From a virus, in the UHGV virus genome UHGV-1334481: a DNA stretch of 57,107 nt; one strand, given 5' to 3'. The first letter of the stretch is position 1. The number at the start of each line of letters is the position of its first letter. Both the position numbers and the translations under genes were made by a program. The notes beneath the pieces were generated by a model. The model had not been told where the DNA came from. It ran no database searches and was given only the letters and a program-made list of their open reading frames with translations. This document shows positions 34,761 to 35,492 of this stretch, one piece after another.

Positions 34761-34833
34761 TGGGAATTAGCCAAGTTGGTAAGGCACTGGATTTTGATTC
34801 CAGGATGCAAAGGTTCGAGTCCTTTATTCCCAG
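34761..34833 (+). tRNA. tRNA-Gln (anticodon UUG)
   Basis: Hand-folded cloverleaf: acceptor tgggaat/attccca, anticodon loop ttTTGat, T-arm aaagg-ttcgagt-ccttt; no encoded CCA. Confidence 0.8.
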
Positions 34834-34834
34834 C

Positions 34835-34921
34835 GCGAGAATGGTCAAATTGGTAAAGGCACAGCACTTAAAATGCTGCGGAATGATTTCCTTGTGGGTT
34901 CGAGTCCCACTTCTCGCACCA
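34835..34921 (+). tRNA. tRNA-Leu (anticodon UAA), long variable arm
   Basis: Acceptor gcgagaa/ttctcgc, anticodon loop ctTAAaa, T-arm gtggg-ttcgagt-cccac, encoded CCA. Confidence 0.8.
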
Positions 34922-34926
34922 AATTT

Positions 34927-35000
34927 GCGGATATCGTATAATGGTATTACCTCAGACTTCCAATCTGATGATGTGAGTTCGATTCTCATTATCCGCTCCA
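34927..35000 (+). tRNA. tRNA-Gly (anticodon UCC)
   Basis: Acceptor gcggata/tatccgc, anticodon stem tcaga/tctga with loop ctTCCaa, encoded CCA. Confidence 0.8.
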
Positions 35001-35010
35001 ATTTAATTTA

Positions 35011-35084
35011 CTCCGTGTAGCTCAGTTTGGTAGAGCGCCTGATTTGGGATCAGGAGGTCCAAGGTTCAAATCCTTGTATGGAGA
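35011..35084 (+). tRNA. tRNA-Pro (anticodon UGG)
   Basis: Anticodon stem cctga/tcagg with loop ttTGGga, T-arm caagg-ttcaaat-ccttg; acceptor has two G-U pairs. Confidence 0.75.
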
Positions 35085-35086
35085 CT

Positions 35087-35176
35087 GGAGGCGTGGCAGA
35101 GTGGTTTAATGCACCGGTCTTGAAAACCGGCAGTCGCTCCGGCGACTCATAGGTTCAAATCCTATCGCCTCCGCCA
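35087..35176 (+). tRNA. tRNA-Ser (anticodon UGA), long variable arm
   Basis: Acceptor ggaggcg/cgcctcc, anticodon stem ccggt/accgg with loop ctTGAaa, encoded CCA. Confidence 0.8.
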
Positions 35177-35181
35177 GTTTT

Positions 35182-35257
35182 GCTGATTTAGCTCAGTAGG
35201 TAGAGCAACTCACTTGTAATGAGAAGGTCGGCGGTTCGATTCCGTCAATCAGCACCA
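35182..35257 (+). tRNA. tRNA-Thr (anticodon UGU)
   Basis: Acceptor gctgatt/aatcagc, anticodon loop ctTGTaa, T-arm ggcgg-ttcgatt-ccgtc, encoded CCA. Confidence 0.8.
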
Positions 35258-35258
35258 A

Positions 35259-35333
35259 GGCCCTGTAGCTGGAAGGTTCAAGCAAGCGACTCATAATCGC
35301 CAGATGGTGGTTCAATTCCACCCAGGGCCACCA
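35259..35333 (+). tRNA. tRNA-Ile (anticodon CAU, presumed lysidine-modified) or tRNA-Met
   Basis: Acceptor ggccctg/cagggcc, anticodon loop ctCATaa, encoded CCA; T4 tRNA-Ile is known to carry CAU (memory). Confidence 0.75.
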
Positions 35334-35337
35334 ATCT

Positions 35338-35412
35338 GGATGTGTAGCTCAGTGGTAGAGCAGTTGACTGTTAATCAATTGGTCCATGGTTCGAATCCAT
35401 GCATGTCCGCCA
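35338..35412 (+). tRNA. tRNA-Asn (anticodon GUU), tentative
   Basis: Anticodon stem gttga/tcaat with loop ctGTTaa, T-arm catgg-ttcgaat-ccatg, encoded CCA; acceptor has two G-U pairs. Confidence 0.65.
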
Positions 35413-35416
35413 AATA

Positions 35417-35492
35417 CGAGGCATAGCTCAGAAGGAAGAGCAAGGACCTTCTAAGTCCTAGGTCGTAGGTTCGATCCCTACTGCCTCGACCA
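35417..35492 (+). tRNA. tRNA-Arg (anticodon UCU)
   Basis: Acceptor cgaggca/tgcctcg (C1-G72), anticodon stem aggac/gtcct with loop ctTCTaa, encoded CCA. Confidence 0.8.

Follow-up and report, generated by a model that had tools for sequence, protein, structure and literature searches.

In phage T4, the transfer RNA (tRNA) genes run from Gln through Leu, Gly, Pro, Ser and Thr to Ile; the GIY-YIG homing-endonuclease gene segB comes next and is followed by Arg and rnaC, and there is no gene for tRNA-Asn. Sequencing of the tRNA regions of phages T2L, RB1 and RB3 revealed genes for tRNA-Met/Ile, Tyr, Asn and Arg that replace the Ile-segB-Arg segment of T4 (Brok-Volchanskaya et al. 2008, PMC2330249). 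The preferred cleavage site of SegB is a 27-bp sequence inside the gene for tRNA-Asn of T2L, and in crosses between T4 and T2L the endonuclease drives replacement of a T2L segment of ~1250 bp that carries these tRNA genes (PMC2330249). The Escherichia coli phage T5 also encodes an Asn isoacceptor, a tRNA-Asn(GUU) of unrelated sequence that neutralizes the PARIS defence (PMC12409363). Here we analyse a tRNA-Asn(GUU) gene at positions 35338-35412 (plus strand) of the virus genome UHGV-1334481, a stretch of 57,107 nt referred to below as the window. The gene lies within a cluster of nine tRNA genes, and we compare it with its counterparts in T4, T2 and their relatives.

An intact tRNA-Asn gene

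ARAGORN identified exactly nine tRNA genes in the whole window, all on the plus strand between 34761 and 35492. The Rfam covariance model RF00005 recovered the same nine independently, with scores of 59-73 bits where the gathering score is 29. A preliminary description of this region had assigned nine tRNA identities by hand folding, and both programs reproduced every one of them; for 35338-35412, ARAGORN called the gene with the same anticodon, GUU.

The Asn element (35338-35409 without its CCA) has the second best covariance score of the nine (72.6 bits, E-value 3.4e-15). Its match to the 7/4/5/5-bp cloverleaf of the model is full-length (1-71), with zero pairs flagged as non-standard. As read from the sequence, the acceptor stem consists of G1-C72, G2-C71, A3-U70, U4·G69, G5·U68, U6-A67 and G7-C66. 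The two G·U pairs that had been noticed in this stem are therefore present, and they stand in tandem. All 21 pairs of the gene are standard. The conserved nucleotides T8, A14, the GG of the D loop, T33 and the T-loop sequence GGTTCGAATCC (in which GTTCRA is required) are present. The anticodon loop is the 7-nt CUGUUAA (G34, U35, U36 and A37), the same as in E. coli asnT, and the discriminator G73 (position 72 in the window gene) is followed by an encoded CCA. The GUU anticodon plus G73 reportedly constitute the identity set for E. coli asparaginyl-tRNA synthetase (AsnRS), a result attributed to Li, Pelka and Schulman in 1993.

The anticodon loop, G73 and CCA are shared with all of the E. coli genes asnT, asnU, asnV and asnW, with an overall identity of 68%. 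Given that identity to asnT is only 68%, we rejected a recent capture from the host and regard the gene as part of an old phage lineage. The nearest matches resident in E. coli are on plasmids of ~94 kb and cover only 83% of the gene.

Judging from its sequence, we consider it highly probable that 35338-35412 is intact and encodes a functional tRNA-Asn(GUU), being eighth in the polycistronic cluster of a Tequatrovirus and the same gene as that of T2, RB51 and JS10. The tRNA would be transcribed together with its neighbours and released by host RNase P and 3′-processing enzymes, as established for the T4 cluster. It would then be charged by the host AsnRS via GUU and G73, and may add decoding capacity for the very frequent AAU and AAC codons during infection. 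As DNA, the 3′ half of the gene may also serve as a preferred target of SegB from T4/T6-type phages, in which case the Ile-Asn-Arg segment would be replaced by the segB-bearing version in mixed infection.

Two phage alleles with compensated stems

The gene itself is already known, as it is annotated in hundreds of genomes and has been characterized at the DNA level in T2L since 2008. About 414 phage records carry it, classical T2 among them, and we distinguish two alleles. Allele A, the 75-nt form of the window, matched 63 phage records. The identity is 99% or more in 41 of these, which include phages of both Tequatrovirus and Dhakavirus, and 39 of the matches listed are at 100%. Sequences 100% identical over the 75 nt are annotated as tRNA-Asn in RB51, RB68, JS10 and IME08, and are also found in KNP1 and REP2. 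In all six phages the gene occupies the same slot as in the window, downstream of the CAU tRNA and upstream of tRNA-Arg(UCU). Allele B, the T2 type, is represented by 352 records.

Sixteen substitutions separate the two alleles (79% ungapped identity), and 12 of these fall in stems. They have in common the slot (as seen in T2L, RB1 and RB3), the anticodon, the 5′ strand of the acceptor stem, the discriminator and the CCA, whereas the anticodon and T stems of allele B have been rebuilt by compensatory changes. Specifically, five pairs are changed on both sides (29-41, 31-39, 49-65, 50-64 and 51-63 in canonical numbering), so that allele B has G39 and G41 where the window has U39 and A41. Two further pairs are changed on one side only (G27·U43 versus A-U, and G5·U68 in the window versus G5-C68), and no pair is broken.

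We extended the comparison to 26 distinct Asn(GUU) tRNAs, comprising the two alleles, the genes of phages Moon and LC53, E. coli asnT and 21 sequences from viral contigs. Because the D arm and the anticodon loop were fixed in the pattern used to retrieve the contig sequences, only the acceptor, anticodon and T stems are informative. In this alignment, 99.6% of the cells are in standard pairs and 16 of the 21 pairs show double changes. None of 500 shuffles reached the observed values, and structures slid by 1-3 columns paired in only 32-44%. The GUU columns are invariant and the discriminator G is at least 90% conserved. The stems of the Asn tRNA are maintained by compensatory substitutions. 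In the tRNA-Asn of Citrobacter phage Moon (L010, 1501-1576), the anticodon loop reads CCGUUAA, in which C replaces the nearly universal U33, and the acceptor stem is the same GGATGT as in the coliphage alleles.

The Asn gene of the Dhakavirus JS10 is 100% identical to that of the window, but several positions differ in each of its two flanking genes, Ile and Arg. This pattern suggests either very strong constraint on the gene or a recent exchange of the SegB-cut gene alone.

Comparison with T4 and its relatives

The cluster matches 759 phage records. Among the matches listed, Escherichia phage KNP1 is the closest over the cluster (99.7%) and UGKSEcP2, of the genus Tequatrovirus, is the closest over 25 kb (98.8%); given these nearest relatives, we assign the window to a T4-like coliphage. 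The order of genes from Gln to Thr is shared with T4, whose cluster comprises eight tRNA genes, segB, rnaC and rnaD. This part is near-identical in the two phages (96% over 34655-35278), and the downstream rnaD/rnaC region is 94.8% identical.

The expectation that T4 encodes eight of the nine tRNAs but not Asn holds for the anticodons and for the absence of Asn. It does not hold at the level of genes, as the CAU and Arg(UCU) tRNAs of the window are each only 61% identical to their T4 counterparts. Because of this low identity, the 3′ part of the cluster can be regarded as a different cassette, and the segment from Ile to Arg as distinct from that of T4, not as the T4 set plus an insertion. The Asn gene is located between a T2-type CAU tRNA gene and a T2-type tRNA-Arg(UCU) gene, with spacers of 4 nt. 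The Ile and Arg genes of the window match their counterparts in T2, KNP1 and SP1 with complete or nearly complete identity. Phage REP2 has yet another Arg(UCU) sequence.

The corresponding order is Thr-Met-Tyr-segB-Arg in T6 and Met-segB-Arg in G2540. In all three segB genomes inspected (T4, T6 and G2540), segB occupies the exact slot of the Asn gene and the Asn gene is absent. By comparison, T2, SP1, KNP1, fPS-65, Sf23, REP2, UGKSEcP2 and Ac3 have the arrangement Ile-(Tyr)-Asn-(His)-Arg, without segB in the slot. Thus, T4 lacks the Asn gene because segB occupies its place; T4 is the exception and the Asn-bearing cluster is the usual state. This corrects the perspective on the locus, as an expectation based on T4 makes the common state look like an extra.

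A candidate SegB cleavage site

We reconstructed the SegB site from the published description (PMC2330249) and the T2 sequence. The resulting T2 site, GGTTCGAATCCTATCACGTCCGCCAAA, accounts exactly for the five nucleotides by which the preferred site was reported to differ from the weaker one in the tRNA-Ser gene, namely G6, A16, G18, A26 and A27. The corresponding sequence of the window, GGTTCGAATCCATGCATGTCCGCCAAA (35388-35414, plus strand), is a candidate SegB site that matches the T2L site at 23 of 27 positions. It keeps G6, A16, G18, A26 and A27 as well as the GGTTCRANTCC and CCAR elements, and differs only at positions 12, 13, 14 and 17, within a part of the site described as degenerate (PMC2330249). 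The T2L allele B and the window have in common the GGTTCGAATCC...CCAAA framework of the 27-bp site. Preferential cleavage by SegB and exclusion in T4 crosses have been shown for the T2L allele only (PMC2330249). From the conservation of the site, we infer that this phage may be a recipient for segB homing. A tblastn search found no SegB homologue encoded anywhere in the window.

In a phage of the Ac3/RB51 type (L136, 1146-1754), another GIY-YIG homing-endonuclease gene replaces tRNA-Pro between Gly and Ser. Its product is 83% identical to T4 SegB over the N-terminal 117 amino acids, while the C-terminal part is unrelated, and it looks like a domain-swapped relative of SegB with a different target. 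We considered whether allele A could be a SegB-immune variant, given that it co-occurs with this endonuclease. The idea was dropped, as the protein shares only the N-terminal GIY-YIG half with SegB and its gene sits in the Pro slot; with a different C-terminal part and a different location, it is uninformative on SegB immunity.

Codon demand

Codon usage of the window was calculated from 64 non-overlapping open reading frames (ORFs) of at least 100 amino acids, with 15,874 codons in total, and was compared with a sample from a single 50-kb region of E. coli K-12. The window ORFs contain 44.3 AAT and 14.9 AAC codons per 1000. In the E. coli sample, the corresponding values are 19.5 and 21.7 in ordinary genes and 4.8 and 29.3 in genes for ribosomal proteins and elongation factors. 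In terms of absolute excess over the E. coli sample, AAT comes first among all codons, at +32 per 1000, and TAT ranks third. The codons TTA, GGA, TCA, ATA, ACA, CAA and AGA, which are read by other tRNAs of the cluster, are all within the top 16 excess codons. AAT makes up about 0.75 of the Asn codons on either strand; the fraction is 0.72 among the ten longest ORFs, which match baseplate and other virion genes of the closest relative by position. This codon excess fits the classical explanation of phage tRNAs as a codon supply. The preliminary description had offered two readings of the element, a functional tRNA suited to AT-rich codon demand or a degenerate copy; the compensatory changes and the excess of AAU favour the former.

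Alternative explanations

Several points weigh against a translational role. The function of the gene in this phage is deduced from sequence, and the host codon sample is small. The predicted fold of allele A is the less stable of the two (-20.2 kcal/mol and z -1.1, versus -24.5 kcal/mol and z -2.0 for allele B), in part because of the extra G5·U68 wobble; the minimum-energy fold of allele A retains the acceptor, anticodon and T arms. The GUU anticodon forms Watson-Crick pairs with AAC and only wobble pairs with the abundant AAU. E. coli has its own tRNA-Asn genes, such as asnT, with four copies in strain K-12, and the gain from another may be small. T4, T6 and other segB phages manage without a tRNA-Asn, and the tRNA region has been reported to be non-essential (PMC2330249). 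A pseudo-tRNA that still folds as a cloverleaf but does not function might account for the adjacent G·U pairs of the acceptor stem and for an Asn fold that is the weakest of the four tRNAs tested, and one relative has an adjacent Tyr gene with a pseudo-tRNA annotation. We nonetheless find such a degenerate copy hardly credible. It is ruled out by the combination of the second-highest RF00005 score in the cluster, standard pairing at 21 of 21 pairs with five fully compensated changes relative to allele B, and conservation at 99% or more in 41 records from two genera, with GUU, G73 and CCA intact. Alternatively, the gene could be a near-neutral passenger, its distribution set by the dynamics of homing endonucleases and recombination in a mosaic hot spot and not by translation. 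Mosaicism is high in the 3′ part of the cluster, where Tyr, His, Pro, Thr, segB and ORFs come and go among close relatives. A single slot holds either Asn or segB, SegB cuts preferentially in the Asn gene, and the identity of this gene across genera with diverged flanks suggests transfer. A passenger, however, would gather stem-breaking changes, of which we found none in about 414 records or between the ~80%-identical alleles, and the ranking of codon excess also fits the set of tRNAs carried. We therefore regard this explanation as quite improbable.

The main selective value of the gene could instead lie in counter-defence, if it replaces host tRNA-Asn(GUU) destroyed by a tRNA-targeting nuclease such as AriB of the PARIS system. 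Among the targets of AriB, the tRNA-Asn(GUU) of E. coli, which is cut between positions 40 and 41, is secondary but biologically relevant, and the tRNA-Asn of T5 contributes to rescue, with the Lys, Thr and Asn tRNA variants of T5 jointly rescuing infection (PMC12409363). A further tRNA of the same cluster, the tRNA-Tyr of T6, neutralizes Septu (PMC13096335). The targets of AriB share a UAAU motif, and a U39-to-A change abolishes cleavage (PMC12409363). The Asn alleles differ at both determinants, 39 and 41. Positions 36-41 (with a slash at the cut) read UAAUC/C in the host tRNA-Asn, UAAGU/U in that of T5, UAAGC/G in allele B and UAAUC/A in allele A, so that G39 is found in allele B and also in T5. 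Allele A, however, keeps U36AAUC/A41, which is the best AriB site, that of E. coli tRNA-Lys, and is nearer to it than the site of the host tRNA-Asn; its anticodon loop is also the same as the host's. Escape of the window allele from PARIS is thus unsupported, as U39 is not substituted and A41 is that of the best substrate. By the published determinants, allele A is not an evident escape variant, whereas allele B could be. The site alone is insufficient for cleavage (PMC12409363), which makes sensitivity unpredictable either way. In addition, this phage has lost tRNA-Tyr, the proven anti-Septu gene in T6. Overall, we consider counter-defence as the main value of the gene rather doubtful. A broader version holds that the two alleles, with 62 records counted for A and 352 for B, are a dimorphism kept by tRNA-targeting defences, with B as the escape form and A sensitive or differently specialized. 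The Tyr/Asn/His cassette would then be an anti-defence module shuffled by SegB-type homing, and not a codon adaptation. This reading is based on the differences at positions 39 and 41 of the anticodon stem and at the bases paired with them, the positions that decide cleavage by AriB, and we think it unlikely.

Missing tRNA-Tyr and tRNA-His genes

The window has no counterpart of the tRNA-Tyr(GUA) gene found between Ile and Asn in KNP1, SP1, T2, REP2, fPS-65, Sf23 and UGKSEcP2, and differs in this respect from the Tequatrovirus members with allele A. Alignments with KNP1, SP1, T2, REP2 and fPS-65 place a gap of 96-99 nt, in the window only, at the Ile-Asn junction (35328-35337, plus strand). 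In the relatives, CCACCAAT closes both the Ile and the Tyr genes; a single copy is left in the window, and the ends of the gap fall inside it. This is the pattern expected if the Tyr gene was lost by a microhomology deletion. Alternatively, the junction may have arisen by recombination with a Dhakavirus-like Ile-Asn arrangement. The cluster of the Dhakavirus JS10 consists only of Met/Ile-Asn-Arg and shares the Ile-Asn adjacency with the window, but not the exact sequences of the Ile and Arg genes. This adjacency is found, among the best-ranked records listed, in Dhakavirus phages and in Ec2-ASingh, a partial record and the only Tequatrovirus-like one.

A tRNA-His gene is located between Asn and Arg in UGKSEcP2, the closest overall relative, and in fPS-65. 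It is carried by only some relatives and is absent from the window. The local peculiarity of the window is thus a loss, not a gain. As the tRNA-Tyr of T6, from the same cluster, is the gene that neutralizes Septu (PMC13096335), this phage may be Septu-sensitive.

Other genes of the cluster

The spacers between the nine genes, by ARAGORN coordinates, are 0, 5, 10, 1, 5, 1, 4 and 4 nt in order. The cluster is tightly packed, as had been described, but the range of 1-5 nt given earlier was too narrow: the Gln gene abuts the Leu gene, and the Gly-Pro spacer is 10 nt. All genes described here are on the plus strand, and scores are those of RF00005. The first is tRNA-Gln(UUG) (34761-34834, 67.4 bits), in which CCA is not encoded and which is 89% identical to the T4 gene, with the differences in the anticodon stem. 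The following tRNA-Leu(UAA) gene (34835-34921, 59.3 bits), with a long variable arm and an encoded CCA, is identical in sequence to that of T4. Next are tRNA-Gly(UCC) (34927-35000, 65.8 bits), tRNA-Pro(UGG) (35011-35085, 66.8 bits), in which CCA is not encoded, and tRNA-Ser(UGA) (35087-35176, 62.6 bits), which has a long variable arm and an encoded CCA.

The tRNA-Thr(UGU) gene (35182-35257, 72.9 bits) is 96% identical to its T4 counterpart and has one pair flagged as non-standard. In its first anticodon-stem pair, an A27/A43 mismatch is found where T4 has C27-G43, and the same variant occurs in KNP1, fPS-65 and Sf23. At the position of the AriB site, this tRNA reads UAAUG/A, with G in place of the C40 of the host site.

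The T2-type tRNA with anticodon CAU (35259-35333) was called ‘Met’ by ARAGORN, but is most likely a tRNA-Ile2 of the lysidine type, which would read AUA. An identical sequence is annotated as tRNA-Ile_CAT in REP2 and as tRNA-Ile in Ac3, and the best full-length matches in E. coli (81.6%) carry a tRNA-Ile annotation. AUA codons occur at 14.8 per 1000 in the window versus 0.2-3.3 in E. coli. The cluster ends with the T2-type tRNA-Arg(UCU) (35417-35492, 68.1 bits).

Rfam matches to Plastid-ycf2, sX4, YrlA and sau-63 in the region are far below their gathering scores and overlie the tRNAs, and were dismissed as chance. A scan for sigma-70-like promoters gave 11 matches versus 9.4 expected from shuffled sequence, with none just upstream of tRNA-Gln. 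The sequence TGCTTAA at 34737-34743 resembles a MotA box, but it has no properly spaced TAnnnT -10 element and the start would fall inside the tRNA-Gln gene; we therefore claim no promoter here.

Region downstream of the cluster

Between tRNA-Arg and the rnaD/rnaC region, an ORF of 116 amino acids (35509-35859, plus strand) is inserted. It is present in T2, SP1, KNP1, fPS-65 and Ac3 and absent from T4, Sf23 and JS10, in which the small-RNA region directly follows tRNA-Arg. Searches against Pfam returned no match for this ORF or for the flanking ORFs 34159-34674 and 36249-36542. The non-coding segment 35859-36203, which is 94.8% identical to the T4 segment with two small stable RNAs, rnaD (species 2) and rnaC (species 1), gave no match to an Rfam family and ends in a terminator-like hairpin (36171-36194). 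The hairpin and its flank occur twice, at 36168-36203 and 36728-36761, about 560 nt apart, in the form CCCCGACC-loop-GGTTGGGG followed by a run of T. The two copies bracket the ORF at 36249-36542 (97 amino acids), and the same duplication is found in KNP1, fPS-65 and Sf23.

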